Assembly: GCA_034679225.1 (NCBI GenBank)
Contig: JAXDBC010000038.1
Span: 10,595 to 74,594, forward strand
Source of the DNA: Bacteroidales bacterium
GTDB lineage: Bacteria > Bacteroidota > Bacteroidia > Bacteroidales > VadinHA17
Direction: 5' to 3'
DNA: 64,000 bases
Made by a program: the position numbers and the translations under genes. Under the pieces are notes generated by a model that was not told the origin of the DNA, searched no databases, and saw nothing but the letters and a program-made list of their open reading frames with translations. This document shows, piece by piece, positions 3,478 through 62,534 of this stretch (position 1 is the stretch's first letter; each line of letters begins with the position of its first letter).

Positions 3478-3768
3478 ATGAATATTTTGCTTAAACCAAT
3501 AGTGACTGAAAAAATGACGAAAGACGGCGATAAATTCAATCGTTACGGTTTCGTCGTTGCCAGGTCGGCCAACAAGATCCAGATCAGGAAAGCGGTTGAG
3601 GAGCTTTACGGTGTCACGGTCGAATCGGTGAACACGATAAGATACGGCGGAAAGGTCAAGACAAGGAATACCAGGTCGGGTCTGCTCGTGGGCAAGTCGG
3701 CAGCTTTTAAAAAAGCTGTGGTCACCCTGGCTGAAGGGAATACAATAGATTTCTATAGCAACATTTAG
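3478..3768 (+). CDS. rplW: 50S ribosomal protein L23
   Basis: [10 protein letters not shown] motif. ATG at 3478 preferred over GTG at 3475. Confidence 0.93.
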
Positions 3769-3776
3769 CAACCAGT

Positions 3777-4604
3777 ATGGCAGTCAGAAAATTAAAACCT
3801 GTAACACCAGGTCAGCGACACAAAATCATCAGCGCCTTTGATACAATAACAAAGGCCGCGCCGGAGAAATCCTTGCTTCGACCGCTGAAGAAATCAGGAG
3901 GAAGGAACGTTAACGGCAGAATGACAATGAGGTACATCGGAGGCGGTCACAAAAAGATGTACAGGGTCATCGATTTCCTCAGGGATAAAGATGGCATACA
4001 TGCAACAGTGAAGACAATTGAATATGACCCCAACAGGTCATCGAGAATTGCACTTGTTGTTTATGAGGATGGAGAGAAAAGGTATATTATTGCCCCTAAC
4101 GGACTTAAGGTAGGGCAGGTTATAATCTCGGGAAAGGATGCCACACCCGAAATTGGCAACACCATGTTTCTGAATGACATCCCGCTAGGAACAGTTGTAC
4201 ACAACATCGAAATGAAACCCGGCAAGGGAGGAGCAATAGCCCGCAGCGCCGGTACTTTCGCGCAGCTTTCGGCAAGGGAAGGAAAGTATGCAACCATAAA
4301 GCTTCCCTCGGGTGAGACCAGGATGGTTCTGACTACCTGCCGCGCAACTATAGGAAGCGTGTCGAACTCCGATCATAACCTTGAGAAATCGGGCAAGGCT
4401 GGACGTTCACGCTGGAAAGGAAGGCGCCCGAGAGTAAGGGGTGTTGTGATGAACCCGGTCGACCACCCAATGGGCGGCGGCGAAGGAAGAGCTTCAGGAG
4501 GTCATCCCAGATCACGCAAAGGAATGCCGACAAAGGGCTACAAAACCCGCGACAGGAAGAAATATTCTTCAAAGCATATTCTTGAAAGAAGAAAAAATAA
4601 CTGA
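3777..4604 (+). CDS. rplB: 50S ribosomal protein L2
   Basis: 275 aa, GGGHKKMYR and [14 protein letters not shown] motifs. Confidence 0.97.
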
Positions 4605-10426: not shown

Positions 10427-10606
10427 ATGGCAAAAATTCGCATTACCCAGGTAAAAAGCAAAATCGGAAAACCCGAAAGACAGAAGAGAACTCTCGAAGC
10501 ACTGGGAATTAAAAAGCTTAACCATAGTGTTGAACATGAAGCCACTCCACAAATACTGGGAATGGTTGAAAAAGTGAAGCACCTGGTTAAAATTGAGAAT
10601 ATTTAG
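10427..10606 (+). CDS. rpmD: 50S ribosomal protein L30 (59 aa, below the ORF-track cutoff)
   Basis: Hand translation gives MAKIRITQVKSKIGKPERQKRTLEALGIKKLNHSVEHEATPQILGMVEKVKHLVKIENI with TAG at 10604-10606. Canonical slot between rpsE and rplO. Confidence 0.93.
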   Translation: MAKIRITQVKSKIGKPERQKRTLEALGIKKLNHSVEHEATPQILGMVEKVKHLVKIENI

Positions 10607-18005: not shown

Positions 18006-18040
18006 ATCCCCCGGAGTTTATGGCTACGGGGGATTTTTTT
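18006..18040 (+). terminator. Intrinsic terminator after eno
   Basis: ATCCCCCG / CGGGGGAT 8-bp stem followed by T7. Confidence 0.7.
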
Positions 18041-18170
18041 GAGCGTTATAACAATGTAATAACCTGGTTATTAATCTGATATAAAGTTATTAACAATTGT
18101 TGATAACTCATGTTTATATCGCGTGTACAATAACAGACATCCTCTCCATTGCCATATCATATTCTTAATG

Positions 18171-18178
18171 TACATTTG
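18171..18178 (+). promoter_or_regulatory. Bacteroidota-type -7 box (TAcaTTTG) preceding the structured segment
   Basis: Exact TAnnTTTG match about 8-12 nt before the AT-rich to GC-rich transition at about 18186. Confidence 0.4.
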
Positions 18179-18185
18179 TTCTATC

Positions 18186-18660
18186 AGGTGAGCGATAAAA
18201 GACTGCTCAAATGATGTGGAACAGGGAAAGGCTTCTTAACTGAAGCCCGAACAGGTTCGGTCAGACCTTCGGGACTGCATATCAGGAGAGCCGAAGCCCT
18301 GGAAAATGAACTCCGGTTCAGGATACCAGGCAGATCGATGAAACCGGAAACGTTCTTTCAACGATTCAGTCACAGGGCAGGCAGAAGAAAACGGGTTTCG
18401 GCACGTAAAATTTTCTGCAACTGGTACAGATCCTCCGGGAAATGACATCAGTCAGCCTGAATGACGCTTCGTCCCGGAAGCCCGGTCGCGGGACCGGACA
18501 AAAGGACAGCAGGAAGGTAAAGCTGTAACAGGCATTACCGGAACGCCAGGGGCTGATCCCGTATCAGGAAAATCAGCCGGTCAGAATAACAGTAACCTGA
18601 CGCCCGTCGCGGCTTCGGTTGCAAAAGGCGAATGGGAACTATTCAAACGAGTAGTTCCCA
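18186..18660 (+). ncRNA. Candidate large structured ncRNA, family not recognised
   Basis: About 470 nt with no credible ORF, GC and purine enrichment against about 30% GC flanks, and at least 10 local hairpins. One is a UUCG-loop stem needing G-U pairs on the + strand only. A terminal 8-bp hairpin lies at 18634-18659. Confidence 0.45.
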
Positions 18661-18772
18661 TTACTGTTTTATATACTTCCTTTGTTCAAATACACTACCC
18701 GGTTTTCCGAACCTTCCGGCAACATGCTTTTTTCACGTCTTTTACTAACTTTGATTCATTTATTTCCATTAT

Positions 18773-20665
18773 ATGCCTTATTCCGGACTTGCCGATTTTA
18801 TAACACAGCTTGAGAAGGCCGGTGAACTGCACCGGATAAGCTCCTTTGCCGATCCTGTTCTCGAAATAGCGGAAATAACCGACCGGATAGTGAAAACCGG
18901 GGGGAAAGCCCTCCTTTTTGAAAATAACGGTACCCGCTTCCCCCTTCTTATTAATGCCTACGGCTCGGAAAGACGACTTTCAATGGCACTCGGAACAGAC
19001 GATATCTCCGGCACAGCCGGGGAACTGGAAAAGCTGTTCAATATGCTCACCGGCCCCGCCGGATCGATGTCCGGCAGAATAAGATCACTGCCTGAACTGA
19101 TCAGGATTGCCGGGTATCTTCCCCTTAATGTCCGCGGGAGAGGAAGATGCCGGCAGGTGATTCACGGCAAACCCGACCTGACGATGTTTCCGGTTCTTAA
19201 ATGCTGGCCCCACGACGGGGGCAGATTCATAACACTGCCTGTCGTTCATACACGGCACCCTGTTACCGGAAAGACAAATGCCGGAATGTACCGGATGCAG
19301 GTGTTCGGACCCGATACTGCTGGAATGCACTGGCACAGGCACAAAACGGGTGCAAACCATTATGAGGAATGGAAGAAGACAGGAAAGAAAATGCCGGTTT
19401 CGGTTTCACTCGGGGGCGATCCCGTTTATGCATATTGTGCAACTGCACCTTTACCTGAAAATATAAACGAATACATACTTGCCGGCTTCCTCAGGAAAAA
19501 GAGAGTTAAAATGGTGAAATGCCTTACCAATGATCTATATGTTCCGGCTGATGCCGATATTGTAATCGAGGGATATGTCGATCCTGCTGAACCGCCGGTA
19601 TTGGAGGGACCTTTCGGGGATCATACAGGTTTTTACAGTCTGGCTGACCTGTATCCCATTTTTCATGTGACCTGCATCACGCACGCGGCCGATGCCGTTT
19701 ACCCTGCAACCATTGTAGGGATACCGCCCCACGAGGACGCGTGGCTCGCGCTGGCAACCGAAAAAATATTCCTGGCACCCCTGAAGCTGGCCATTCAGCC
19801 GGAAATAATCGATTTTCACATGCCGGTGGCCGGCGTTGCCCATAACCTGGTTATAGTGAAGATAAAAAAGAGCTTCCCCGGGCAGGGGATGAAGGTTATC
19901 AGCTCCCTTTCGGGAGCGGGACAGATGATGTTCACAAAATACATGGTAGTGGTAAGCGGCGATGTCGACATAAGGAATTACAGGGAGCTTGCAGCTCATG
20001 TTGCTGAGAACACGGTGCCGGAGAAGGATTTTGTGTTTAACTCCGGACCTATGGATGTCCTGGATCATTCGTCCGGCAGTTTTTCATTCGGAGGAAAGGC
20101 AGGGGTGGATGCTACGGTAAAACTCCCTGAAGAGACAGGGGGGATACGACCGGCCGGAATATCTTCGGATCCGCGTGACATTGATCCGGCAGGCATCCTG
20201 AATGTACCCTTCATAAAGGGATTCAGGGAATACAGGGTAAACGGCAGGAATAAAATTCTTTTGCTTGGCGCCAATCCTTCGGAAGACAGCGGAAGTGTTG
20301 ACAGGATATGCCGGTTTCTGAAAGAAAACTCCGGCTTGCTGAGCTATTGTCTGGTTTTGGTGCTCGATCACACTGTTGACCTTGATGATATGAATATTGC
20401 AGCCTGGCAGTTGCTTGGAAACTCCGATCCCGTGAGAGATCATTGCTTTATAGCCCCCGGATCGGTACTGATTGACGGAACCATGAAGGTTTACCGGGAG
20501 GGAGGCTTCCCGCGGCCGTGGCCGAATGTTGTATGTGCCGGCAGGGAAACAATAGAAAGCGTTGACAAAAAATGGGATTCCCTTGGTTTTGACCGTTTTG
20601 TACCTTCCTTTTCACTCAGGTACTCAGGTCTTTTAAGAGATGGCGGGGATACTGTATTCTTCTGA
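18773..20665 (+). CDS. UbiD-family (menaquinone/ubiquinone biosynthesis-type) decarboxylase, long 630-aa form
   Basis: N-terminal ADFITQLEKAGELHRIS and GGRFITLP, GMYRMQV, GPFGDHTGFY motifs typical of UbiD. Own TAacTTTG box at 18746-18753. Confidence 0.85.
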   Translation: MPYSGLADFITQLEKAGELHRISSFADPVLEIAEITDRIVKTGGKALLFENNGTRFPLLINAYGSERRLSMALGTDDISGTAGELEKLFNMLTGPAGSMSGRIRSLPELIRIAGYLPLNVRGRGRCRQVIHGKPDLTMFPVLKCWPHDGGRFITLPVVHTRHPVTGKTNAGMYRMQVFGPDTAGMHWHRHKTGANHYEEWKKTGKKMPVSVSLGGDPVYAYCATAPLPENINEYILAGFLRKKRVKMVKCLTNDLYVPADADIVIEGYVDPAEPPVLEGPFGDHTGFYSLADLYPIFHVTCITHAADAVYPATIVGIPPHEDAWLALATEKIFLAPLKLAIQPEIIDFHMPVAGVAHNLVIVKIKKSFPGQGMKVISSLSGAGQMMFTKYMVVVSGDVDIRNYRELAAHVAENTVPEKDFVFNSGPMDVLDHSSGSFSFGGKAGVDATVKLPEETGGIRPAGISSDPRDIDPAGILNVPFIKGFREYRVNGRNKILLLGANPSEDSGSVDRICRFLKENSGLLSYCLVLVLDHTVDLDDMNIAAWQLLGNSDPVRDHCFIAPGSVLIDGTMKVYREGGFPRPWPNVVCAGRETIESVDKKWDSLGFDRFVPSFSLRYSGLLRDGGDTVFF

Positions 20666-23855: not shown

Positions 23856-23902
23856 AATGCAACATCTGCCGGGGAAAAGCGTCTTTTAGCAAAAGAGTCG
23901 TC

Positions 23903-23989
23903 ATGAAACCCATGTCTGTCGAACACAAAAACACGTATTTACATAATTTTCAGTCATGTGGCTTGCCCCGCCTGAGCGGGCACCTTTAA
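23903..23989 (+). repeat. ATG-headed repeat module, copy 2 (28-codon open frame MKPMSVEHKNTYLHNFQSCGLPRLSGHL)
   Basis: Aligns without indels over 26 codons to the copies at 62400 and 42656(-). Its stop lies 18 nt before the ATG at 24008. Confidence 0.6.
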
Positions 23990-24007
23990 ATCAAAAATAA
24001 TAACCCG

Positions 24008-25352: not shown

Positions 25353-25356
25353 AATG

Positions 25357-25452
25357 GTCTTGCGGTCTGGCACGACCGCACGACTGCACGACCGCAGGAC
25401 CGCACGACCGCAAGACCGCAAGACCGCACGACCGAACGACAGGCGACCGCGG
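25357..25452. repeat. Octamer tandem array (NGACCGCA, about 9 units) preceded by one inverted unit
   Basis: cgaccgca cgactgca cgaccgca ggaccgca cgaccgca agaccgca agaccgca cgaccgaa, led by ggtcttgcggtc. Fills the gap between ppk2 and hisS. Confidence 0.9.
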
Positions 25453-26879: not shown

Positions 26880-26951
26880 ACACTTAACCCTGAATCACTT
26901 ACTCTCGTTGACCCCCTTTTCCTCCCGTCCCGTCCCGATTCCCCTGCATTC

Positions 26952-27091
26952 ACATACCCCCTTTCCCGTTTCCCCCAGGGGGGAAAGGCTTCTTCCAATG
27001 GAAGTTGCTGCTCAATTTGTTATATCAAGCATTGAAGTTCATATTTCTTTCCAATATTAGCAGAATCTTCTTGCTCCTTCACCCTAGGGGG
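26952..27091 (-). repeat. MITE-like 142-bp element, inverted copy (about 85% identity to the 46.4-kb copies)
   Basis: The reverse complement aligns end to end with 46364-46505, including both CCCCCAGGGG-type termini. Confidence 0.7.
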
Positions 27092-27128
27092 TTGGGGGTA
27101 AAGCCCCCTTGGGGGTTGGGGGTAAAGC
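27087..27128 (+). repeat. Tandem duplication of a GGGGGTTGGGGGTAAAGC module (four G5 tracts)
   Basis: gggggttgggggtaaagcccccttgggggttgggggtaaagc read directly. Confidence 0.85.
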
Positions 27129-27159
27129 TCCTTGCTGCTCAATTTATTATATAAAGCGA

Positions 27160-27217
27160 GCCGCGTGCCGCGTGCCGCCCGCCGCCCGCCGTTCTTTCGC
27201 CCTGTGCCCTACCCCCT
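27160..27217. repeat. Heptamer-periodic tract (GCCGCGT x2, GCCGCCC x2, then GTGCCCT-type units)
   Basis: Period-7 reading directly abutting and overlapping the stop codon of the thiamine pyrophosphokinase gene. Confidence 0.8.
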
Positions 27218-27856
27218 GAATTTCTGATAAACTATAACCGCTCCTTCGTCGAAGCGGATCTCGAATGAATCGCCTGTTGCTTCATTCAGGGTTCCCCGCC
27301 ACCAGTTCATGAGTTTAAGGCCTGAAAGTTCATATCTCAGACCTGAAGAACTGATTTCAGTTTCGGGGTTTACCGAGAACAGTGAAACCTGCTGACCAAC
27401 AAAGGAGTTTAGTGACCTGCTTCCCAGTATCGGGGTGAATATTCCGGTATCGGTTACCATCACGACGCTGACTTCCCTGGCATATTCAGCGAGGAGTGAT
27501 ATGTTGCCGATGGTATGGTCTTCCCTTTTTCCCGTGGCTCCGACAATCACAATATCCATATAACTATTATTAATACACCACCTGACTGCCTTTGTGAGGT
27601 CGTTGGTCTCCTGGTCGGGGTCTCTGAAGAGCCGGCCGGAATATTCCCGGGCAATTTCGCGGTCGATGGAATCAAGGTCGCCCACTATCGCTTCAGCTTC
27701 CAGTCCGGAACCGGCAAGGTTCTTAATACTGCCGTCGCAGCAGATTATATGTTCAGCTTTCCGGAGGTATGCAAGAGGCACCGGATGCATGGGAAAGTTC
27801 CCGTCAGCGAGTATTACAGTTCGCTGGATATCGAAAATGATGTTTTGATACATCAT
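27209..27856 (-). CDS. Thiamine pyrophosphokinase
   Basis: 215 aa, CCDGS and IVGDLDSI motifs, C-terminal thiamine-binding domain. Confidence 0.85.
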   Translation of the reverse strand: MMYQNIIFDIQRTVILADGNFPMHPVPLAYLRKAEHIICCDGSIKNLAGSGLEAEAIVGDLDSIDREIAREYSGRLFRDPDQETNDLTKAVRWCINNSYMDIVIVGATGKREDHTIGNISLLAEYAREVSVVMVTDTGIFTPILGSRSLNSFVGQQVSLFSVNPETEISSSGLRYELSGLKLMNWWRGTLNEATGDSFEIRFDEGAVIVYQKFRG

Positions 27857-34751: not shown

Positions 34752-36125
34752 TTATTTCAGCCTGGCCGGTTTCTGAAATTTCCTTTTCATCTCATAGGGA
34801 AGTATCCTGACCCGCGTACCGCTTTCATTTGTAAAATAAAGGGAAGATGCGGACAACTCACTTGTGTTCCCGTCGGCCCACAGGGCGTAGAATTCCTTTG
34901 AGGCATTCATGGGTTTACTGACGAAGGAGTGGTTGAACCTGCTTTGTGAAGTAATCTGCACTTTTTTCTCCCAGCTCCCGCCCCGGTTGTTACTTACCCA
35001 CATTGCCACCTCTCCTCCGGTCGCGTATTTTTCAGGGCCGGGTTCAGTAGGACCTATCACTTTCCATTCGTCCTTTTCAATGTAAAGGGCTCCCCTGTCG
35101 AAATTATGTGTTGACTCGCACAGCTTGCTGAAATTCCACTTATTATCCTTTCTGCTGATCACCATCCACTCCCTTGGACCACCACGGGGCCCCGGTTCAA
35201 TATCGCGCGAGAGAATCACGAGCAGAACCGGATTGCCTTCAGTATCAAAGTCGATATCAGACAAATGAACCAGGAGTCCTTCCTTTTCAAAATTCCTTAC
35301 AATGGCATCATTGAGAACATCTCTCAGTGGAGTTTCAATGATCTTATCATCAATAGTTTTCCAGCTTTTCCCCTGATCGTCGGAATGAAGGAGATAAAGA
35401 TTTGTCTGGCGGTCGATATTGGCTTCCGGAAAGTAATTGAATGCCGTGTAGATCTTTCCGTTGCAGATACCTGAAAGCTGAAGATGTCCTCCCATGCTTG
35501 CCAGTGTACGGGAATCCGTCCAGTTCTGCCCGTCGGTGCTTGATGAGAAGCGAATCTCAAGTTCTTTTAACACCCTCGACCACAGAAGAAGGAAGCCGTT
35601 TCCCGGATCCCACCAGGGCTGGGGCGACAGCATTTCCAATTCCTTAACCTTATCAAAGCGTTCGATGGAATAAGGTTTGGAACTTCTGAAAATCAATCCG
35701 GGCCTTGTACGGCTGTTTCCGCTCACGAACACCCACAGGAATCCCATGCCATCGATTGAAAGTGAGGCATTGTCATATGGTTCCCTTACTCCTTCCTTAT
35801 CATGGACAACAACAGGTTTCGGAACAATATTCCTCGCGTGGTCATAATAAGAGACCATGATAAGCAGGTGACGTTCCTTCTCGCTTAAGGTACCGCCGTA
35901 AACAAAGAAGGTTTTATTCGCCTCCTTCGAGTATATTGCAATCGGACGGTAGCGGGAACCGAAGGTGGCAAAGCCTCCGGAAAGCTTGTAACCGTATTCG
36001 CCGCGATCTCCGGTACTGTACCAGATACCCTTGTATCCGTCTGCCACCCGGTTCTGGGCCAGAACAAAAGCGTTATCAGTTGCCACAAATAAGAAGAGGG
36101 CAAGAAGTAAAAACCTGCCAGACAT
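34752..36125 (-). CDS. BNR/Asp-box beta-propeller protein (BNR_4-like)
   Basis: Signal peptide. Asp-box-like SSTDGQNW, SDDQGKSW, SNNRGGSW. Confidence 0.75.
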   Translation of the reverse strand: MSGRFLLLALFLFVATDNAFVLAQNRVADGYKGIWYSTGDRGEYGYKLSGGFATFGSRYRPIAIYSKEANKTFFVYGGTLSEKERHLLIMVSYYDHARNIVPKPVVVHDKEGVREPYDNASLSIDGMGFLWVFVSGNSRTRPGLIFRSSKPYSIERFDKVKELEMLSPQPWWDPGNGFLLLWSRVLKELEIRFSSSTDGQNWTDSRTLASMGGHLQLSGICNGKIYTAFNYFPEANIDRQTNLYLLHSDDQGKSWKTIDDKIIETPLRDVLNDAIVRNFEKEGLLVHLSDIDFDTEGNPVLLVILSRDIEPGPRGGPREWMVISRKDNKWNFSKLCESTHNFDRGALYIEKDEWKVIGPTEPGPEKYATGGEVAMWVSNNRGGSWEKKVQITSQSRFNHSFVSKPMNASKEFYALWADGNTSELSASSLYFTNESGTRVRILPYEMKRKFQKPARLK

Positions 36126-36220: not shown

Positions 36221-38014
36221 TTATCTGAAGTGGAAATAATACCAGAAAGTTTTGCCGAACTGTTCCCTCATAAGCGCTTCGAGCCGTGCCGGATTTTGCC
36301 TGGCGCTCATAAAAGCGGCAAAATACTGCTCAAACCTCAATCTCGTCTCACTGCTCAGTTCCAATCCCCCAAGATCGGGAAAAACACCCTGGCTGTTATA
36401 GTATATAAGTATTGCTTCCTCTATGTATTTGGGTATCCTGGTGTATCCCATGTTTTTCATAAGTCGGACGTTGTCGACCAGCATTTCCACATCCTTGTTG
36501 AGCAGAAGCCAGGCCATCATGTATTCGAAGGCTTCCCTGTTGCCGGGATTCTGGTTCACAAGCCTGGGTAAATTGCTTTCAGGCGTTTCCAGGAAGATAA
36601 AGAAGTCCTGACCGGGAAGCAGGTTCATTTTCCTTCCCAGGTTCGGATCCGATTTAACCGCGAGCGGGTCGCCCGCGAGTTTTTCATGATCCATTGCCCA
36701 TTTTCTGTAAAAAAGCGTTTTTTTCAGGATTGAAGCATATTTGGCGGTCATGCTGTAATTGCCGTTGATAAGGCTCGTTTTTACAAGCAGTTTCATGTTC
36801 TGGGGCCTCTTGCCATAAACCACCATCTCCTCGTAGGCCCAACGCTGAGCTTCATTAATCAGTCCGATGGCATAAAAGGCTTGTGCACCCCAGTTGATAT
36901 GCTCACTGCTCCATGGGAGGAACAATGATGAAGTCCTGAAGTCCTGCCTTCCCTGGAACAACCTGTCGCACATCTGTCCGGTCGACGAAAGGGCAATGTT
37001 GTAAAAATACTGTCCTATAAGATTTTCTGAGGGTTTCTTTTCATGGTATTCAACTGCCTCCTGGTATTTCCCGGTGAAAACAAGCTTCTCGAGGTTTATG
37101 ACGCGGGCAGTCTGCGGCTTGAAAGCTGCTGCAAGAGCTGCAACGGCAGTACAAAGAATAATTGCCGGCAGTACAATTGTCGCGGCAAACCGTTCCCGCG
37201 GTCTTACTATCCTTAATCTCCCGGCCAGGCGGGTAATTACCGGATACAGCACAAGGAAGGCTGTCATTAACCGGAACATCAGCCTGTGCAGGCTGTCGTT
37301 TATATCCGGAAGGGGATAAAGGAAACGCTGTTTTATGTCATCGGTAATCAGGAACTTGTCGGATAAGAGCACGCATAATCCTGCCAGGCCTGCAAGCATC
37401 AGCGGCATTAGATACCTGTGGCGTCCTTTCAGGTAAACAAGACTGTAAACAATGAACATCCCGGTGAATATCAGGCCAAAAGCGCCAGCAAGGTAATATA
37501 GGACAGGGAAAAAGGTCAGGGCGATGTACATATCCCCGGTCTTTTCACGGCTTACCACTATAAGGAAGAAGAAAAGAAGCAGTACAAATCCTGCATTGTA
37601 GAGCATCAGGTGATAATAATGAGTCTGCATGATGAGCAGCAGGCAGGATGGAATGATTGCCAGGCCCGATCCCGGCATCAGCCCGCGGTTTATCCCGTGC
37701 ATTATCACAGCCGGTAATGACAGTACCAGGGCCAGGATCAGGGCTCCCGCGAAACTATTAATATAAAATTGGGTAAGGAATTTTGCTATCAGGTCGGCAG
37801 GGGCACCCGGTTTATCAAAAAACTCAAGGATATAGTCAGCTGAATACAGGAACAGCGACTGTTGTTCCTGGAAGAAGAGGACATAATTGCCGGGGATCAG
37901 GAAATAGATAAAGGCAATAAGGAAGAAAGCGGCAAAGAAATACCAGCTCCGGTCAGGGGCCGGTACAGGCACCTGCTTTTTGGGGGTTGTTTTCTTATTA
38001 CGGTTCTTTGTCAT
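36221..38014 (-). CDS. Polytopic membrane protein with soluble C-terminal domain, function unknown
   Basis: Start set to the ATG at 38014 (MTKNRNKK...). About 9-10 hydrophobic helices, then a helical-looking (alpha-rich by eye) C-terminal half. The 101 codons upstream in the track ORF are tandem-repeat read-through. Confidence 0.75.
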   Translation of the reverse strand: MTKNRNKKTTPKKQVPVPAPDRSWYFFAAFFLIAFIYFLIPGNYVLFFQEQQSLFLYSADYILEFFDKPGAPADLIAKFLTQFYINSFAGALILALVLSLPAVIMHGINRGLMPGSGLAIIPSCLLLIMQTHYYHLMLYNAGFVLLLFFFLIVVSREKTGDMYIALTFFPVLYYLAGAFGLIFTGMFIVYSLVYLKGRHRYLMPLMLAGLAGLCVLLSDKFLITDDIKQRFLYPLPDINDSLHRLMFRLMTAFLVLYPVITRLAGRLRIVRPRERFAATIVLPAIILCTAVAALAAAFKPQTARVINLEKLVFTGKYQEAVEYHEKKPSENLIGQYFYNIALSSTGQMCDRLFQGRQDFRTSSLFLPWSSEHINWGAQAFYAIGLINEAQRWAYEEMVVYGKRPQNMKLLVKTSLINGNYSMTAKYASILKKTLFYRKWAMDHEKLAGDPLAVKSDPNLGRKMNLLPGQDFFIFLETPESNLPRLVNQNPGNREAFEYMMAWLLLNKDVEMLVDNVRLMKNMGYTRIPKYIEEAILIYYNSQGVFPDLGGLELSSETRLRFEQYFAAFMSARQNPARLEALMREQFGKTFWYYFHFR

Positions 38015-38015
38015 G

Positions 38016-38135
38016 GTCTTGCAGTCTTGCGGTCTTGCGGTCTTGCAGTCTTGCGGTCTTGCGGTCTTGCAGTCTTGCGGTCTTGCAGTCTTGCGGTCTT
38101 GCAGTCTTGCGGTCTCTTCGTCCCGCAGTCTCTTA
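38016..38135. repeat. Octamer tandem array GTCTTGCR (12 perfect + 3 degenerate units)
   Basis: Begins 2 nt from the ATG at 38012-38014. Reverse-complement family of the array at 25373. Confidence 0.95.
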
Positions 38136-38145
38136 GTTTCACTCT

Positions 38146-38290
38146 GTGCCCTGCGCCCTGTGCCCTGTGCCCTGAGTCCTGTGCCCTGCGCCCTGTGCCC
38201 TGTGCCCTGAGTCCTGTGCTCTGTGCCCTGCGCCCTGTGCCCTGTGCCCTGAGTCCTGTGCTCTGAGCCCTGTGCCCTGAGCCCTGAGCC
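38146..38290. repeat. Heptamer tandem array G[TAC]G[CT]CCT (20 units) with 35/42-nt higher-order periodicity
   Basis: gtgccct gcgccct gtgccct gtgccct gagtcct repeated. The minus (sense) strand reads (AGGGCAC)n, which is G3N4G3N4. Confidence 0.95.
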
Positions 38291-38328
38291 ATAACCTACC
38301 CCTCCCAGGGGATCCATCCGGTACAGCC

Positions 38329-39915
38329 TTATTCATGAATCGACTTTTCTCCCGGGTTTCGCTTCATTCCTGCCTTTTTCATTTTTTCCGTCGAGAGCGA
38401 TCTTTCGGGATTTCCAGGTTTAGCCTCCACCGGCTCAATTGCAGTTGCCTTTGCAAAATCGCGTGGTCCGAGGGGTATTTTTCCATTTACAAATTCTGGT
38501 ATATTATATGATTCCATGAGTTTATCGTAGTATGCCGGGTCTTTCTGCGGGAGGATAAAAGGCTTTCCCGTTTTATTCCACCCTCCGAAGTAAGCCAGGA
38601 AGGGCCGGGTTGTTCTGCCGTCGGTCCTTTTACTACTGAAGACCAGCCATTTCCCGTTCGACGACCAGGTATGGTAGCTGTCCGTCTCGCTGCTGTTGAT
38701 ATCCATTTTCCTGCTTTCCCCGGTGTTCAGGTCGATTATATGAAGATCGGCCTCCCTGTGCCAGATGGGGAAAGTGCCGAAATCATGCAGTGTAATCACC
38801 AGGTATCTGCCGTCGGGGGATATCCTGGGGAAGGATGCGCTTTTCCCCTTTAGCGATGCATTGAAAACCATTTCCGTCTTTCCGAAGCCCGCGGTTTCGG
38901 GATCAAAGGGTATCCTCACTATGTCGTATCTTGTTTCTTCGATATCATCGAGTGTCATGGCCGCTTGGCTGCCGGTCTGGAGGGCCCTGCAAAAGTAGAG
39001 CCAGCGTCCGTCGGGCGACCACGAGGGAAATGTTTTAAGGTAGCCGGTGGTATCACCGTCGTCAGCGTGGTAGGTGAGATTTCTTTCAATGTCGTACACC
39101 ACGATATCCGAAACAAGGTCAAAGACCTCTATCAGTTTTTCGGGTTTTGCATAAAAGCCCTGGCGAACCTGGTTTGATGAAAAGGCGATATACTTTCCGC
39201 CGGGATGCCATGATGGATATGTTGCTCCGCCGGGCATCGATTCAATCTTCGGATCGACTCTGAGGAAACGGCCTTTATCGGAAATATAGGTTCCGTTGTT
39301 TGATCCCCTTATGTGTACCATGAACTTGCCGGGGTTGTACTGATTGAACGAATGGCAGTTGATGCAGTTCATATCGAGTATTTTATTGTCGATAAGAGTT
39401 TCTTCGCTGAAACTCTCTATCGACCTCTGCATTATCCTGATACGCGACCAGTTGTAGTATCCCGGATAGATAAGCCTGTAGGCAAGGTAAGGATCGGCCG
39501 GTTCTTCCGAGACATTCATATGGAAAGGCTCAAACTTTTCAAGCTTCCCCGAGCTTTTCCGTGATGCGGAAATTTCTATTCTGATCCTGCTTCCGGCAGA
39601 AGCCCCGGTAAGATTTTTCCATGATTTCGCGGGGAACTTAATGACACCATCCGACGATCTGACATCAATACTAAAAGCGCCGGATTCGGATGTTGCTGTA
39701 AGCCAGAAGCAATCGCCCTCCTCCTCTATCCTGAAATTCATTGGCGCTATATTCGGAGGAATGGTGACATCAGTATAATCAGGCTCAATCGCGGGAAGTC
39801 TGCCTGTGTCCGAAGGCTCCAGACCCGGCTTGCCGCTGCAACCCGTCAACAGAATGATGACTGACACAACCAGAATTGACTGAAATATTTCCCTCGCTTT
39901 TCTCAACCTGTACAC
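38329..39915 (-). CDS. Lipoprotein with one CxxCH haem-c motif and PD40/TolB-like propeller repeats
   Basis: Lipobox LLTGCSG, CINCHS, repeated W(S/H)P(D/G)G(R/K)(W/Y) and ISPDGRY blades. Confidence 0.75.
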   Translation of the reverse strand: MYRLRKAREIFQSILVVSVIILLTGCSGKPGLEPSDTGRLPAIEPDYTDVTIPPNIAPMNFRIEEEGDCFWLTATSESGAFSIDVRSSDGVIKFPAKSWKNLTGASAGSRIRIEISASRKSSGKLEKFEPFHMNVSEEPADPYLAYRLIYPGYYNWSRIRIMQRSIESFSEETLIDNKILDMNCINCHSFNQYNPGKFMVHIRGSNNGTYISDKGRFLRVDPKIESMPGGATYPSWHPGGKYIAFSSNQVRQGFYAKPEKLIEVFDLVSDIVVYDIERNLTYHADDGDTTGYLKTFPSWSPDGRWLYFCRALQTGSQAAMTLDDIEETRYDIVRIPFDPETAGFGKTEMVFNASLKGKSASFPRISPDGRYLVITLHDFGTFPIWHREADLHIIDLNTGESRKMDINSSETDSYHTWSSNGKWLVFSSKRTDGRTTRPFLAYFGGWNKTGKPFILPQKDPAYYDKLMESYNIPEFVNGKIPLGPRDFAKATAIEPVEAKPGNPERSLSTEKMKKAGMKRNPGEKSIHE

Positions 39916-40059
39916 TTGAAACTGAATTGAGCTCTAAAGGTAAAATTTTATTTCACATTACACATTCTGCCTGCTACGCTAAAAGCTGCAGGAAATCGGT
40001 GAAACACTTCGGGAACATTTTTCTTTTCTTTACATTTGAAATTAATAAAGCCTTTTATC

Positions 40060-40108
40060 ATGAAACCCATATGTGTCAAATGCATAAAAACAACCTGGCG
40101 GGGCAGGC
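40060..40108 (+). repeat. ATG-headed repeat module, truncated copy 4 (fused in frame to the next gene)
   Basis: atgaaacccatatgtgtcaaatgcataaaaaca...ggcggggcaggc matches the 5' end and 3' end of the other copies. A TAcaTTTG box lies at 40031-40038. Confidence 0.5.
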
Positions 40109-42543: not shown

Positions 42544-42656
42544 AATAAGATTTTTATTTTTAATGGAATGATTCCTTCCCCGCTCAGGCGGAGGAACTCA
42601 CATGACTGAAAATCATACAAATGTAGGTTTGTATATTTGACACATGTGGGTTTCAT
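42540..42656 (-). repeat. ATG-headed repeat module, copy 3 (38-codon frame MKPTCVKYTNLHLYDFQSCEFLRLSGEGIIPLKIKILL)
   Basis: Lies in the susC-susD intercistronic gap. Its TGA overlaps the susD ATG as ATGA. Confidence 0.6.
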
Positions 42657-42690
42657 ATCGTTCCAGTGTTAATGTAACAATTATTAATCA

Positions 42691-46218: not shown

Positions 46219-46312
46219 GTGCGGTCTTGCAGTCCTGCTTGCCCTGAGCCCTGAGCCCTGAGCCCTGAGCCCTGTGCCCTGTGCCCTGTGCCCTGAGCCC
46301 TGAGCCTTCCTG
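46219..46312. repeat. Mixed array: 2-3 octamer units (GTCTTGCA-like) then about 10 heptamers (GAGCCCT/GTGCCCT)
   Basis: gtgcggtcttgcagtcctgcttgccctgagccctgagccctgagccctgagccctgtgccctgtgccctgtgccctgagccctgagcc. Confidence 0.9.
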
Positions 46313-46363: not shown

Positions 46364-46505
46364 TTCCCCCAGGGGTGAAGGAGCAAGAAGATTCTGCTAA
46401 TATTGGAAAGGAATATAAATTGTAATATTTGATATAACAGATTAAGCAGTAACTTTCATAGGAAGAAGCTTTTCCCCCCTGGGGGAAACGGGAAAGGGGG
46501 TGAGT
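46364..46505 (+). repeat. MITE-like 142-bp element, copy 1
   Basis: Termini TTTCCCCCAGGGGTGAAGG ... CTTTTCCCCCCTGGGGGAAA are inverted repeats. Differs at one position from copy 2. Confidence 0.75.
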
Positions 46506-46616
46506 GACTGCAGGGAGGTAACAAAAAAGAGGGTACGTGAATAAGGGGGTTCTGAGGTCTTTTTGTAATTATTTAATCACCTGTAGTTCCCTGCCGGTTA
46601 TACCCCCTTCCCAACC

Positions 46617-46758
46617 TTCCCCCAGGGGTGAAGGAGCAAGAAGATTCTGCTAATATTGGAAAGGAATACAAATTGTAATATTTGATATAACAGATTAAGC
46701 AGTAACTTTCATAGGAAGAAGCTTTTCCCCCCTGGGGGAAACGGGAAAGGGGGTGAGT
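46617..46758 (+). repeat. MITE-like 142-bp element, copy 2
   Basis: Direct repeat of 46364-46505 at a 253-bp offset. Confidence 0.75.
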
Positions 46759-46883
46759 AAATGCGGGGAGCTCCCGATAGCTATCGGGACGGGATGGAAA
46801 GGGGGTATGTGACTGCAGGGGATAACAGTAAATAGGGTAAATGAATGCAGTGTGAAACAAGAATGCGGGTGAGTGAAAGTAAG

Positions 46884-48002: not shown

Positions 48003-48658
48003 TTATGCAGAAATGGATCTCTTCCATACTTTAAGTCCGGCGAACGACATTACAAGGTACACCGCGTAGAGAATAACCGTGGGATAAAGCCCCCGCGTAA
48101 CGAAGATCATCACGGACGCGGCATTTACAGCGATCCAGAGGTACCAGTGTTCATATATCTTTCTTGCAAGCATCCAGGTTGCTATTGCCGACAGTGCTGT
48201 TATGAAGGAATCCCATCCCGGCACAGGTGAATCGGTAAACCTCGACAGGATAAACCAGATACCGGAATACGACAAAATGAACACAGCAGTGAGCACTAAA
48301 CCTGTTAACAATTTTAACCTCGTTACCTGAAGTCCCCCGGACTCCGCGCCCTGTGCCCTGTGCCCTGTGCCCCGTGCCCTGAGCCCTGTGCCCCGTGCCC
48401 CGTGCCCTGTGCCCCGCGCCCTGTGCCCTTCACCCACCAATACCATCCTATGCAGCTCATAGCCAGGTAGTATCCCTGAAGGCTCATATCAGCATAGAAC
48501 TTGCTTGTAAAAAAAACAACAATATAAACGGCGCTGGTTACTATGCCAACCGGCCACAACCATATATTCTGTCTTATCTCGAGAAACACGTAGATTATGC
48601 CGCTTAAGGCTCCGAATATCTCTATCCAGTTTGTTGCTATCCAGACGTTAATGCTCAT
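48003..48658 (-). pseudogene. PnuC-family (PnuT-like, thiamine-regulon) transporter split into two frames by a heptamer array
   Basis: 48323-48658 encodes the N-terminal TMs (...CIGWYWWVKG). 48003-48446 encodes the C-terminal TMs in a different frame. Both frames are open across the 84-nt array. Confidence 0.8.
48346..48429. repeat. Heptamer tandem array (12 units, GTGCCCT/GTGCCCC/GAGCCCT/GCGCCCT) inside the pnuT-like gene
   Basis: Read directly. The sense strand is (AGGGCAC)-type G3N4 repeats. Confidence 0.95.
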
Positions 48659-48662
48659 ATCA

Positions 48663-51086
48663 TCAGAATTCCAGTCCCAGCCTCAGCATAAAATTGGTTC
48701 CTGCCTGGGGAAAATAATATGCCCAGCTAAGTTCCTTTCCGTCTTCAAACCAGTTGCCTCCATATGCATTGCTCACATATCTTGCATTGAAGACATTGTT
48801 TACAAGAAGTTGAATACCGGCGCTCCTGAGGTTTTTAATCACCGGTTCGAAATCGATCATAATGTCGCTGACCATGTATGGATCCAGCATCCTTTCACTG
48901 TTCATGGTGTTGTCGAAATACTGCTTCCCGACATATTTTGTAATGAAATGCAGTTTCAGGGAAGGGAGGATATTTGCATACAGATTGCTGCTTCCTGTAA
49001 TTGAAGGCGAGTAGGCTATATCAACCTTACCGAGATGAAGGCTCTTGTATTCCTCCGACCAGTCGGATGTATTATAATCAATATAATGCTCTACAAAATC
49101 AACTATCTTGTTGCTGCTCAGTGTCAGGTTCAAATCGAGACCGATGAAATCTGCCGGTTTGAAGCCTGCTGTCAGTTCGGCTCCTATCCGGTAGCTTTTT
49201 TCGACATTTGTCATTATTGAATAGCCCACATTGCTTAGTTCGCCCGTCGGCACCAACTGGTCGCGATACAGCATTCCGTACAGGTTGAGCCCTGCCGAGC
49301 TCTTTGCCGCTCTTACAACATAGCCGGCCTCAATGTCGTAAAGCCGCTCAGGTTTTGGTGTTGCCTCACTGTCGCCCGAAGCCTCCTTGAAATCGGTTCG
49401 TGTCGGTTCCCTGTTAGCCACCGACAACGAAAGGAAAGCCTCCTGTCCTGGAAAGAGCCTGAGGAAGAGTCCTGCCTTAGGATTGAAAAAATGGAATTCA
49501 TGAGTCTGCCCGATATCCTTTAGATCGTCGTCTTCGCCCCTGAGCGAGTAGTTGACATGCCTGTACTGAAGGTCGCCAAAAGCCGACAGTTTATCTGTTA
49601 ATGAATAGTTTATCTTCCCGTAAAGGCTTGCTTCCTTTTTTTCACCATTGTTGAAATACCATTGATAATTGTTCTCCGCTGATCCGGGGTATCTCGTCCA
49701 GATAATCCTTCCATAATGGTCGCCTGAATAGAGATTAATTCCGCCTCCGATCTTTGAGTCAATTTTATCTTTACGGTAATTCAGCGACCAGACAAGTCCG
49801 TGAAAACCGTTTGACATCCATTTTCTCCGGATCAGGTCGGTTTCATCCATTGTAAGGCTTCCGATGGTCACTTCCGGAAGGCCGTATTTGCTGTACTTTT
49901 CATCCTCCCTGAACTCTTCGTAATAGCCTTTGCCGTAAGTATAGTGAAGGGCGGAATTTAAGGAAACAAAATCATTTATTTTCCTGCCGAATATCAGGTG
50001 ATAGTGATTCTGGGTGTAGTTATCGCTTTCGTTGTCATAATAATGCACCTTTCCCAGGTCATCGGAGTATTCTCCGGCCGGATTATAACGTCTGTCGATG
50101 TTAAGCATCTCTTTCGGCACTCCCCACCATCCTATCCCTGTTTTTTCCTTTCCAAGTATAACATTAGCTTTTATAAGCGATTTTCCAGTCCGGAACAGAG
50201 CGCTGAACAAGGCCGAATTATGTTCCGATCCTGTTCTGGCAATATATCCATTGCTTCTAAGATCGGACCAGCGCATCTGGAATGCAAACCTCTCTTTCAG
50301 CAATCCTGTTCCGGCTGTAATGCTGTTTCTGAAAGTTCCGTAGGAGCCGGCAGCCGAACTGATCCCTGCAAATGGTTCGTTTTCAATACCTTTAGTTTGG
50401 ATGTTTATTGAAGCCCCGAAGGCACCGGCCCCGTTAGATGAAGTTCCCACTCCTCTCTGTACCTGAATATTGTCGACAGAGGAAGCCAGGTCGGGCAGGT
50501 CGACCCAGAAGACCTGTTGCGATTCGGGATCATTTAGGGGAATTCCGTCAATGGTGACATTTATCCTTGAAGCATCGGTTCCCCTTATCCTCAGACTGGT
50601 ATATCCGATTCCGTTTCCAGATTCCGATGTCCCGACAAATGAAGGTGTAAGATTCAAAAGAAAAGGTATTCCCTGGCCGGAATTATTTTTTTCCAGTTTT
50701 TCTCCCGTCACATTTGAATAAGCGAGCGGAGTTTGTTCCCCGGCCCTTGTCGCGCTTATTATGACATCGTTGGTTACAATGGTTTTCAGTCGCAGACTCA
50801 CATCCTCTTTCATATCTCCTGTCACATGTATCTCCCTGATCTGTGTTTCATATCCCATGAAGGAATATCTCAGGGTGTAATACCCGGATTTAAGTCGTGC
50901 GAGCATGTAGTTCCCGGAGGCATCGGTATGGACACCGGTAAAAGTTCCCTCAATAATCACGGCGGCACCCGCGAGTGCTTCGCCAGCAGAGTCGGTAACT
51001 TTGCCGCTGAGGCTCTGGCCTGTCATATGAAAGGAAAAGGAACCCAGCAGAATAAGTGACGACAGAAAAAGCAGTTTTTTCCTCAT
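48663..51086 (-). CDS. TonB-dependent receptor (thiamine-regulon outer-membrane transporter type)
   Basis: 807 aa, CarboxypepD_reg N-terminus, plug, C-terminal ...LRLGLEF. Preceded by a TPP riboswitch and followed 4 nt later by the pnuT-like gene. Confidence 0.9.
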   Translation of the reverse strand: MRKKLLFLSSLILLGSFSFHMTGQSLSGKVTDSAGEALAGAAVIIEGTFTGVHTDASGNYMLARLKSGYYTLRYSFMGYETQIREIHVTGDMKEDVSLRLKTIVTNDVIISATRAGEQTPLAYSNVTGEKLEKNNSGQGIPFLLNLTPSFVGTSESGNGIGYTSLRIRGTDASRINVTIDGIPLNDPESQQVFWVDLPDLASSVDNIQVQRGVGTSSNGAGAFGASINIQTKGIENEPFAGISSAAGSYGTFRNSITAGTGLLKERFAFQMRWSDLRSNGYIARTGSEHNSALFSALFRTGKSLIKANVILGKEKTGIGWWGVPKEMLNIDRRYNPAGEYSDDLGKVHYYDNESDNYTQNHYHLIFGRKINDFVSLNSALHYTYGKGYYEEFREDEKYSKYGLPEVTIGSLTMDETDLIRRKWMSNGFHGLVWSLNYRKDKIDSKIGGGINLYSGDHYGRIIWTRYPGSAENNYQWYFNNGEKKEASLYGKINYSLTDKLSAFGDLQYRHVNYSLRGEDDDLKDIGQTHEFHFFNPKAGLFLRLFPGQEAFLSLSVANREPTRTDFKEASGDSEATPKPERLYDIEAGYVVRAAKSSAGLNLYGMLYRDQLVPTGELSNVGYSIMTNVEKSYRIGAELTAGFKPADFIGLDLNLTLSSNKIVDFVEHYIDYNTSDWSEEYKSLHLGKVDIAYSPSITGSSNLYANILPSLKLHFITKYVGKQYFDNTMNSERMLDPYMVSDIMIDFEPVIKNLRSAGIQLLVNNVFNARYVSNAYGGNWFEDGKELSWAYYFPQAGTNFMLRLGLEF

Positions 51087-51109
51087 CTCTGTATCAGTTA
51101 AAACTATAT

Positions 51110-51205
51110 ACCGGGTGCATTTGTTCCCTACGCCGGCATTACCCGGATCAGGTGCAAGGGTATGATCTCAGCCCGTAATAATAAGGCACCCCGTAAATGA
51201 CGATG
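51110..51205 (-). promoter_or_regulatory. TPP (THI-box) riboswitch
   Basis: The minus strand reads CAUUUACGGGGUGCC...GGGCUGAGAUCAUACCCUUGCACCUGAUCCGGGUAAUGCCGGCGUAGGGAACAAAUG. It shows the canonical CUGAGA, ACCUGAUC.GG.UAAUGCC.GCGUAGGGAA core and a CAUUU/AAAUG P1, about 25 nt before the ATG at 51086. Confidence 0.9.
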
Positions 51206-62364: not shown

Positions 62365-62399
62365 TCAGGATTGCTGTTATAATTCCTGTTGAACAGGAA

Positions 62400-62516
62400 A
62401 TGAAACCCACATGTATTGCATACACAAACACGTATCTATATAATTTTCAAACATGTGGGTTCCCCCGCTTGAGCGGGGCAGGCTATCATACCATTGAAGT
62501 CAATATTATATTATGA
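62400..62516 (+). repeat. ATG-headed repeat module, copy 1 (38-codon frame MKPTCIAYTNTYLYNFQTCGFPRLSGAGYHTIEVNIIL)
   Basis: Lies between grpE and dnaJ. Contains an AACCCACATGT/ACATGTGGGTT inverted repeat and a CCCCGC-TTGA-GCGGGG hairpin. Its stop lies 18 nt before the dnaJ ATG. Confidence 0.6.
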
Positions 62517-62534
62517 TGAAATAAAGGAGTCGGG

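Follow-up and report, generated by a model that had tools for sequence, protein, structure and literature searches.

The 64,000 nucleotides (nt) of Bacteroidales DNA analysed here (contig JAXDBC010000038.1 of GenBank assembly GCA_034679225.1, forward-strand positions 10,595 to 74,594; hereafter the window) carry on their minus strand two neighbouring genes, for a PD40 lipoprotein and for a DUF6057 membrane protein, that are separated by a gap made of tandem repeats. Read in the sense of the two genes, a heptamer array, (CAGGGCW)n, is followed by an octamer array, (GCAAGACY)n, which runs up to the DUF6057 start codon. This gap is probably a hypervariable intercistronic spacer of simple sequence repeats (SSRs) within an operon, composed of two families that are each specific in position and orientation, and not a dedicated switch. 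Both units are repeat families widespread in Bacteroidales-like genomes and are not peculiar to the DUF6057 gene. Some uncultured Bacteroidales have numerous tandem arrays of 7- and 8-nt units, strictly oriented with respect to stops and starts, and this locus is one instance among them. The SusC/SusD genes of the window and homologues named 'Bacteroidales bacterium' likewise point to an uncultured member of Bacteroidales. The PD40–DUF6057 locus is ordinary for its lineage, and its interest lies in the orientation rules seen at the level of the families and in their possible link to translation initiated independently of Shine-Dalgarno (SD) sequences.

An intercistronic gap made of two repeat arrays

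The upstream cistron encodes a PD40 lipoprotein with a CxxCH motif (38329-39915, minus strand; Pfam PD40, E 2e-21), which ends with a TAA stop at 38331-38329 and is found as an identical protein on 8 public contigs. The downstream cistron encodes DUF6057, a polytopic membrane protein of 597 aa (36221-38014, minus strand; Pfam PF19529, E 1e-129), which opens with an ATG at 38014-38012 and has neither a PDB sequence match nor an NCBIfam match. Exact-sequence searches found no recorded copy of the window's DUF6057, in the 597-aa form or in the 698-aa form discussed below, or of its ppk2. Read directly from the sequence, the gap between the PD40 stop and the DUF6057 ATG measures 314 nt (38015-38328). 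The gene order PD40, DUF6057, BNR_4 is kept in other species.

Seen from the start codon, the gap begins with an octamer array of 12 perfect units (38015-38110, minus strand; RGTCTTGC on the plus strand), which three degenerate octamers extend as far as 38134. In the GGTCTTGC register the array contacts the ATG at a distance of 0 nt, GCAAGACC being the last sense octamer, immediately 5' of the start codon (GCAAGACC|ATG). Degenerate, octamer-related transition units occupy 38111-38143 (minus strand; sense GAGTGAAACTAAGAGACTGCGGGACGAAGAGACC), and a GAGACNNN-type transition recurs in two strains, L001 and L132, and in the sister species L134 within its PnuC-like gene. The heptamer array (38144-38290, minus strand; CTGWGCC on the plus strand) comprises 21 units, begins about 38 nt past the PD40 stop and is G-rich on the coding strand. 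It holds three times a 35-nt block, CTGTGCC CTGCGCC CTGTGCC CTGTGCC CTGAGTC, partly lengthened to 42 nt. The GGG tract is intact in 15 of the 21 heptamers, in runs of 3, 4, 4 and 4, and the runs of 4 are copies of one 35-nt block; other heptamer loci span 4-28 units. Tandem Repeats Finder (TRF) scored the octamers at 167 (period 8, 12.6 copies) and the heptamers at 196 (period 7, 21 copies), and two-unit pattern matches in the window numbered 36 and 20 vs 0.14 and 0.25 expected from shuffles. The original prediction had described a gap built of 12 perfect and three degenerate octamers next to the ATG and of 20 heptamers; this description is borne out, with one heptamer more.

Directly past the PD40 stop, and 5' of the arrays in the transcript, lies a short hairpin, CCCCT-GGG-AGGGG (38299-38311, minus strand), followed by GGGGTAGG. 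It appears as a stem in both RNA folds computed for the gap, with and without G-quadruplex (G4) energies, is also present in L001 and L132, and has a related form in L133 and L137. The gap matches no Rfam family, either at the gathering threshold or at E <= 1, and a tRNA scan of the 64-kb window found none. The heptamer array is no assembly artefact, since six independent short-read contigs (L003-L008) match its first ~100 nt base for base, variant units included; exact unit counts beyond these ~100 nt are those of the window assembly alone. Short-read assemblies break at such arrays, and contigs L002-L008 all end inside this one.

The true start of DUF6057 is placed at ATG 38014 by its profile and its relatives. 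Positions 9-569 of PF19529 align with residues 26-597, and the close homologues, among 120 listed, are 597-605 aa long with the same N-terminus (M-T/A-K/R...). An earlier proposal that the repeats add a 101-aa peptide started from ATG 38317, which lies in frame with the DUF6057 ATG, 101 codons upstream, and gives a 698-aa open reading frame (ORF) across the arrays. As had also been stated, the arrays are free of stop codons; this is the case in all three sense frames, so that the 698-aa ORF is automatic and uninformative. In L001, the frame equivalent to the 38317 extension is closed by TGA and TAA upstream of the DUF6057 ATG. The N-terminal repeat peptide was accordingly abandoned on three grounds, namely the start of the profile and homologues at 38014, the automatic open frame and the L001 stops, and the repeats are in all likelihood not translated as an extension of DUF6057. 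Stop triplets, taken without regard to frame, are likewise present in the L132 gap. Gene callers are misled by such arrays into N-terminal extensions, as with the 698-aa ORF here and with P0002, a DUF6057 homologue annotated at 621 aa, 24 residues too long, through run-on across the octamers.

In the window allele only, ATG 38292 opens a 93-codon ORF through both arrays (38292-38011, minus strand), which ends in a TGA overlapping the DUF6057 start (ATGA), a termination-reinitiation geometry. The equivalent of ATG 38292 is CTG in L001 and L132, so that the ATGA arrangement is not conserved. In distant species, heptamer arrays of (AGCAACC)4, CTCCCAG- and GCCCCCR-type units lie within the DUF6057 5' coding region (L135 ~1880-1930; L136 ~2235-2275; L137 ~4060-4110). 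They encode a low-complexity Pro/Ser/Gln-rich N-terminal tail, whose frame would be shifted by a change of one unit.

Public contigs that share 93-97% identity with the window were taken as conspecific strains, and the gap length differs in the three strains compared: 149 nt in L001, 314 nt in the window and ~435 nt in L132. The repeat region (38015-38295) measures 281 nt in the window, against 116 nt in L001; like L129-L131, L001 has ~11 heptamers, two perfect octamers and 2-3 degenerate ones. L132 has ~6 heptamers, octamers and then two extra tandem units of ~158 nt. Other arrays of the window also vary: the PnuC-like array (48348-48429) has 7 additional nt in L001, the ppk2-hisS array (25356-25445) is 19 nt shorter in the conspecific L171, and other GC-rich heptamers take the place of the 46221-46306 array in L001. 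Since the strain differences fall inside the repeat tracts, slipped-strand mispairing would be the process by which the arrays lengthen and shorten.

In the sister species L133 and L134 (80% and 75% DUF6057 identity), the same gene order is found with a purine-rich gap of ~110 nt without repeats, which argues that the arrays are recent and dispensable at the PD40–DUF6057 locus. The distant orthologous loci L135 and L136 carry three or four octamer-like GAAGACCG units directly past the PD40 stop, and octamer-like seeds at this position would therefore be either old or recurrent.

The extra units of L132 (5860-6195) are inserted exactly at the octamer/ATG junction, equivalent to 38014/38015 of the window. 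Each of them starts with ATGTRACATGTATWATAGGCGATGTATWATAGGCGATG and has GAGAC-type and GCAAGAC units at its end; L013 contains part of their sequence, and in L202 an octamer array comes after similar GATGTATTATTTATG repeats. Downstream of DUF6057, the BNR_4-like gene (34752-36125) is present in L133, L134, L136 and L137; it is deleted in L001, L129 and L132, where a 131-nt remnant is left.

Distribution and orientation of the two families

The heptamer was scanned for as four units, with one genome per species, and the species of the window is not among the matches listed. The unit occurs in many phyla, with at least about 31 loci in Bacteroidota (Bacteroidales, Rikenellaceae, Prolixibacteraceae and Marinilabiliaceae metagenome-assembled genomes, MAGs), and at the ~31 Bacteroidota loci listed the arrays are almost all intergenic. 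A metagenome scan for the octamer returned at least 153 arrays in at least 120 loci, with a median GC of 44% and 3 to 44 units each. Across ~1 Mb of collected loci, arrays of period 7 (178) and 8 (169) are far more numerous than those of any other period, and dozens of further units occur in arrays there. The neighbours of the arrays are unrelated genes and include housekeeping ones (hisS, rlmN, acrB-like).

Each family has a preferred strand at a given gene boundary. Among the matches listed, the coding strand is the G-rich one for all 8 heptamer arrays lying within 6 nt past a stop codon (p = 0.008), and for those within 50 nt the proportion is 11:3. Pfam domains were found in seven of the eight ORFs upstream of the stop-adjacent heptamers (HAD hydrolase, HlyD, M20 peptidase, carboxyl transferase, DUF2141, ECF-type sigma factor and class-V aminotransferase). 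The octamer is biased in orientation before start codons: among the matches listed, 24 arrays with a long ORF start within 40 nt downstream are in the GCAAGAC sense vs 3 in the opposite one, a split of 21:3 after redundancy removal (p = 3e-4), and the distance to the ATG ranges from 0 to 30 nt. Nine of the ten ORFs tested downstream of octamers were confirmed by Pfam, several with profiles that begin at the N-terminus, and the start codons next to octamers are therefore genuine. These ORFs include RlmN, an AcrB-type pump, a SIS-domain protein, UDP-GlcNAc 2-epimerase, UDP-glucose dehydrogenase, a flavoprotein and a nucleotidyl transferase. The GCAAGACC|ATG junction itself is identical at L202.

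Where both families lie on the same strand within 150 nt of each other, the heptamer precedes the octamer in 8 of 8 cases among the matches listed. A gap between genes on the same strand offers both the position after a stop and the position before a start, and it is for this reason that the PD40–DUF6057 gap would hold heptamers and then octamers.

Hairpins between inverted arrays were rejected as a general theme, an opposite-orientation partner within 200 nt being found for just 15 of the 154 octamer arrays among the matches listed. A replication-strand cause of the orientation was also rejected, as GC and AT skew in the window track gene direction. Of the octamer arrays, the one at 25.4 kb is on the plus strand and that at 38.0 kb on the minus strand, each in the sense of the neighbouring genes.

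Scans of the gap found no sigma-70-like site, no terminator-like site and no Bacteroidetes TAnnTTTG motif. With no promoter, terminator or Rfam match in the gap, PD40 and DUF6057 are presumably co-transcribed, and the arrays would be carried within a polycistronic PD40–DUF6057 mRNA. Their sense strand consists of 31.5% A, 28.6% C, 34.8% G and 5.1% T and is free of ATG, GTG and TTG in every frame; the inverted orientation of the octamer is U/G-rich and has a TTG in every unit. The sense RNA of 344 nt has a minimum free energy (MFE) of -82.8 vs -95.2 +/- 4.5 kcal/mol for dinucleotide shuffles (z = +2.7) and folds worse than 100 of 100 shuffles.

Next to the DUF6057 ATG, the octamer supplies A at -3, -5, -6, -11, -13 and -14. 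In F. johnsoniae, A at -3, -6, -12 and -13, low structure and AUG depletion determine SD-independent initiation, and Bacteroidia do not use SD sequences (PMC6847099). The original prediction had regarded the octamers as occupying the place of a ribosome-loading region. This view is not supported, as Bacteroidia make no use of SD sequences and the octamer itself provides A at -3, -6 and -13 (PMC6847099). As far as its sequence features indicate, the GCAAGACY orientation fits SD-independent initiation.

The heptamers add a potential for quadruplex formation. By the G3N1-7 rule, the sense strand has three 4-tract motifs (38149-38172, 38184-38207 and 38226-38249). G4Hunter gave moderate scores, 0.80 for the heptamer array and 1.0 for the perfect unit. 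With quadruplex energies included, ViennaRNA predicts two G4s in the minimum-energy fold of the window allele (-90.9 vs -82.8 kcal/mol) and one in that of the L001 allele.

Octamer or heptamer units are found at four further sites of the window; the heptamer has four loci within the 64 kb, three of them intergenic and one in a coding loop. Between ppk2 and hisS stands an array of the octamer family, (GCACGACC/GCAAGACC)n (25356-25445, plus strand), sense to the plus-strand genes. It sits in a terminator-like hairpin upstream of the essential hisS, with a T-rich tract after it. An inverted GGTCTTGCGGTCT arm precedes it, which makes a 13-bp stem between inverted octamers possible, and a 12-bp stem GTCTGGCTCCCT/AGGGAGCCAGAC is found at this array in L171 (reverse strand, ~3689-3760). 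At the 3' end of the thiamine pyrophosphokinase gene, related heptamers rich in GC (GCGTGCC, GCCGCCC and GCCCTGT on the plus strand) form a short array (27156-27211, minus strand). A second composite array (46221-46306, minus strand) is made of 9 (CAGGGCW) units and then GCAGGACTGCAAGACCGC, ~250 nt upstream of a SusC-like gene.

A heptamer array of 12 units (48348-48429, minus strand) lies inside a PnuC-like gene (48003-48660, minus strand; Pfam NMN_transporter), within a region coding for a loop. In L001 (440-1102) the corresponding ORF is intact, with 220 aa, and the repeat encodes GTGHRAQGTGHGAQ... The window array lacks one unit (7 nt) relative to L001, which disrupts the frame; the window gene could be a phase-variable gene, a pseudogene or the product of an assembly error. 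The sister species L134 (357-1043) has 5 heptamers and GAGACNNN units in frame at the same site. Arrays of this kind can shift coding frames, as the PnuC-like gene illustrates. A thiamine pyrophosphate (TPP) riboswitch (51107-51203, minus strand; Rfam RF00059, 60.7 bits) stands upstream of a TonB-dependent receptor (48663-51086) and of the PnuC-like gene. Together with the thiamine pyrophosphokinase gene (27209-27856), these features suggest a thiamine-uptake operon.

Other repeated elements are also present in the window. A dispersed element of ~120 nt has copies in the window at 62397-62521, 42574-42659 (reverse) and 23901-23990, with a partial copy at 40058-40091, and occurs also in L053 (481-602), L013 (1273-1337) and L228 (524-645). 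It comprises two hairpins, AACCCACATG...CATGTGGGTT and then CCCCGC-TTGA-GCGGGG, and lies just 5' of start codons, including a SusC-like/SusD-like intergenic position. The element is 93% identical in other Bacteroidales MAGs, has no Rfam match and may correspond to a structured leader or to a small RNA. A tandem repeat of 253 nt with G-rich GGAAAGGGGGTGAGTGACTGCAGGGG segments (46364-46770) precedes the SusC-like gene; it is present twice in the window and about four times in L001 (reverse-complement ~18010-19030). An inverted copy of 150 nt (26942-27091) adjoins the arrays at 27.1 kb. Between this dispersed 150-nt element and the GC-rich heptamers, a G-rich unit of 24 nt, CCCTWGGGGGTTGGGGGTAAAGCY, is present twice (27082-27129).

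Mechanism and alternative explanations

In a hypervariable spacer such as the one favoured here, either family would be tolerated only in places and orientations harmless to gene expression, and next to a start codon the one orientation tolerated would be that which gives a U-poor, purine-loaded, weakly structured RNA free of starts and stops, with A at -3, -6 and -13. Bacteroidia depend on open leaders that contain A and lack AUG. The orientation bias of the octamer before start codons would then have a translational reason. An effect on DUF6057, if any, would most likely be graded and non-essential, following the length of the spacer and the number of potential RNA or DNA G4 modules.

Several observations weigh against this interpretation. 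The strongest point against simple neutrality is the conservation of the units across hundreds of loci; with at least 153 octamer arrays, it fits a sequence-specific function or module copying better than independent slippage from random seeds. Past stop codons, octamers are found in both orientations (35 vs 52 among the matches listed), so that the orientation rule does not hold everywhere. In two species the PnuC-like gene also contains the heptamer-then-octamer composite, in frame, and the GAAGACCG units of L135 and L136 could represent an old, maintained element of the PD40–DUF6057 locus. In addition, the gene calls at the comparison loci are crude ORF calls, with 18 flanking ORFs checked against Pfam, and many of the metagenome loci carry no taxonomy.

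The arrays might instead form a cis-regulatory device for DUF6057, in which heptamer G4s, as RNA or as non-template DNA, and/or the length of the arrays set downstream expression. The sense strand does offer three canonical 4-tract motifs, predicted G4s enter the minimum-energy folds of both the window allele (two) and the L001 allele (one), and array length differs among the strains. Analogy speaks in the same sense: expression is inverse to length at the heptamer SSR of H. influenzae hmw1A (PMC12721329), and GGGNATC repeats at like positions form G4s in vitro (PMC4692102). We nevertheless consider such a device unlikely. G4Hunter reaches just 0.8-1.0, the four-tract runs, as copies of one duplicated 35-nt block, give no independent sign of selection, and the RNA folds more weakly than its shuffles, with no long hairpin of the hmw type. 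The same operon is found without arrays in sister species, arrays of the same families flank unrelated metabolic and housekeeping genes, and no regulatory role was found by Rehm et al. for the analogous Xanthomonas/Nostoc repeats (PMC4692102).

The original prediction had coupled DUF6057 expression to the length or structure of the arrays. Two of its observations stand: array length is not uniform across strains (gaps of 149, 314 and ~435 nt), and the sense strand satisfies the G3N4 quadruplex rule, with three 4-tract motifs and two predicted G4s in the ViennaRNA fold. The repeat peptide, the displaced loading site and the gene-specific coupling are not supported, the last because the same arrays lie beside hisS, rlmN and acrB-like genes and the sister-species locus has none.

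Tandem sites for a sequence-specific RNA- or DNA-binding protein, serving as a post-transcriptional regulator or as a ribosome-recruiting platform, would account for a conserved octamer unit (at least 153 arrays) that adjoins genuine starts in one orientation, and for the same heptamer across phyla; the TAACTGA repeats of Beggiatoaceae, for which a model of this kind has been put forward, offer an analogous configuration (PMC4679880). Such a platform is made improbable by octamer numbers from 3 to 44 with no preferred number (among the matches listed), by a distance to the ATG that varies from 0 to 30 nt, by orthologous gaps without arrays in sister species and by the many other 7-8 nt units that form arrays in these genomes.

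The composite of heptamers and octamers might also have been copied or moved as a module, by recombination or insertion, and not expanded in situ. The succession of heptamers, GAGACNNN transition and octamers is indeed repeated in the gap, at 46221-46306 and in the PnuC-like gene of two species, the 8 of 8 same-strand metagenome pairs (among the matches listed) share the same order, and the two extra ~158-nt units of L132 at the octamer/ATG junction partly recur in L013. A copied module appears decidedly improbable, however, as neither terminal inverted repeats nor target duplications nor an associated transposase were found, the order follows simply from the two position rules (after stop, before start), and the unit variants differ from locus to locus.

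Phase variation or a repeat peptide, with the unit number setting the frame of an extended DUF6057 (ATG 38317) or of the upstream ORF that overlaps it at ATGA, is extremely improbable: the 698-aa and 93-codon ORFs do run through the arrays, and one unit does shift the PnuC-like frame elsewhere in the window, but these open frames are automatic in arrays stop-free in three sense frames, the DUF6057 profile and close homologues start at 38014, the L001 extension meets TGA and TAA, 38292 is CTG in L001 and L132, and overlong gene calls, P0002 (621 aa) among them, result from run-on across octamers. Like phase-variable loci, the gap has a hypermutable SSR, with three length alleles in one species; the array lies between a stop codon and the true ATG, and not within a frame or promoter elements.

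The hypervariable spacer remains the preferred explanation. The orientation rule provides a testable handle on the constraints that act on leaders and intercistronic regions in bacteria that initiate without SD pairing, and also bears on whether G-rich repeats at gene ends have any role. Going further, the two families could together be a lineage-wide, position-specific repeat system of SD-independent Bacteroidales, an extension that we regard as distinctly unlikely. In that case, the G4-prone (CAGGGCW)n would mark or insulate the 3' ends of cistrons, and (GCAAGACY)n would provide structure-free, AUG-free landing pads or 5'-leader rheostats for SD-independent initiation. Changes in length by slippage would then bring a heritable and graded tuning of many genes, housekeeping ones included, and the PD40–DUF6057 gap would be the textbook case, with both modules back to back.

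Comparison with known repeat systems

Long simple repeats with short units have been described in a number of bacterial lineages, and the cyanobacterial STRR heptamers are a further family of this kind. According to Mrazek et al. 2007, as cited in PMC4679880, certain lineages are rich in arrays of 7-nt units, mostly intergenic, for which polymerase slippage was proposed as the source. The repeats described here are similar to the long SSRs (5-11 nt units) of that study, in that periods of 7-8 nt dominate the collected loci. Surveys of this type are not known to report GCAAGACY or CAGGGCW units, a Bacteroidales lineage or paired orientation rules, and the literature searched gave no description of these two units or of paired position rules in Bacteroidales.

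The octamer finds its closest parallel in position in the TAACTGA heptamers of marine Beggiatoaceae, some cyanobacteria and five Bacteroidetes, for which a translational role has been proposed (MacGregor 2015, PMC4679880). Like them, it is forward-oriented and ends a few nt from the starts of unrelated genes; unlike them, it has the unit GCAAGACY with a period of 8 and reaches 44 units, vs mostly 2-6.

The analogue best understood by experiment is that of H. influenzae, where (ATCTTTC)n in the 5' untranslated region (5'-UTR) of hmw1A is transcribed and the number of units tunes expression gradedly (PMC12721329, PMC8262952). The gap shares with it a varying repeat array, probably transcribed, between upstream sequence and a start codon. 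The hmw SSR acts through a long hairpin with a G-rich arm and RNase III cleavage, whereas the gap is without a complementary arm. A long hairpin of the hmw type was rejected for the sense RNA, whose z is +2.7 relative to shuffles. Moreover, the hmw SSR is specific to an adhesin gene, whereas the arrays described here are dispersed and lie beside housekeeping genes.

The class closest to the heptamer is that of the GGGAATC and GGGGA(C/T)T heptamers of Xanthomonas and Nostoc studied by Rehm et al. 2015, which form quadruplexes, are over-represented in non-coding DNA and between aligned ORFs, are transcribed, vary between close relatives and flank all gene classes, their function being unknown (PMC4692102). 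It has in common with them a heptamer unit that combines a G3 tract with a 4-nt loop, a dispersed and mostly non-coding location, a unit number that varies between relatives and neighbours of all functional classes (PMC4692102). The differences lie in the unit, which is CAGGGCW and not GGGNATC or GGGGAYT, and in the host, an SD-independent member of Bacteroidota; because its unit is CAGGGCA/T, the heptamer is a different member and not the Rehm et al. family itself. Up to 20-28 units are found here, with no independent sign of a four-unit preference, and the heptamers are followed by an octamer array, of non-G4 type, that extends to the following gene's start codon. G4 formation has been demonstrated in vitro for the Rehm et al. 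repeats, whereas it is predicted in silico here. The variation between close relatives that marks the Rehm class is also seen in this array, with 21 heptamers in the window, ~11 in L001 and ~6 in L132. Judged at the level of sequence, the heptamer array thus appears to agree with the class in each positional and structural feature that sequence could address.

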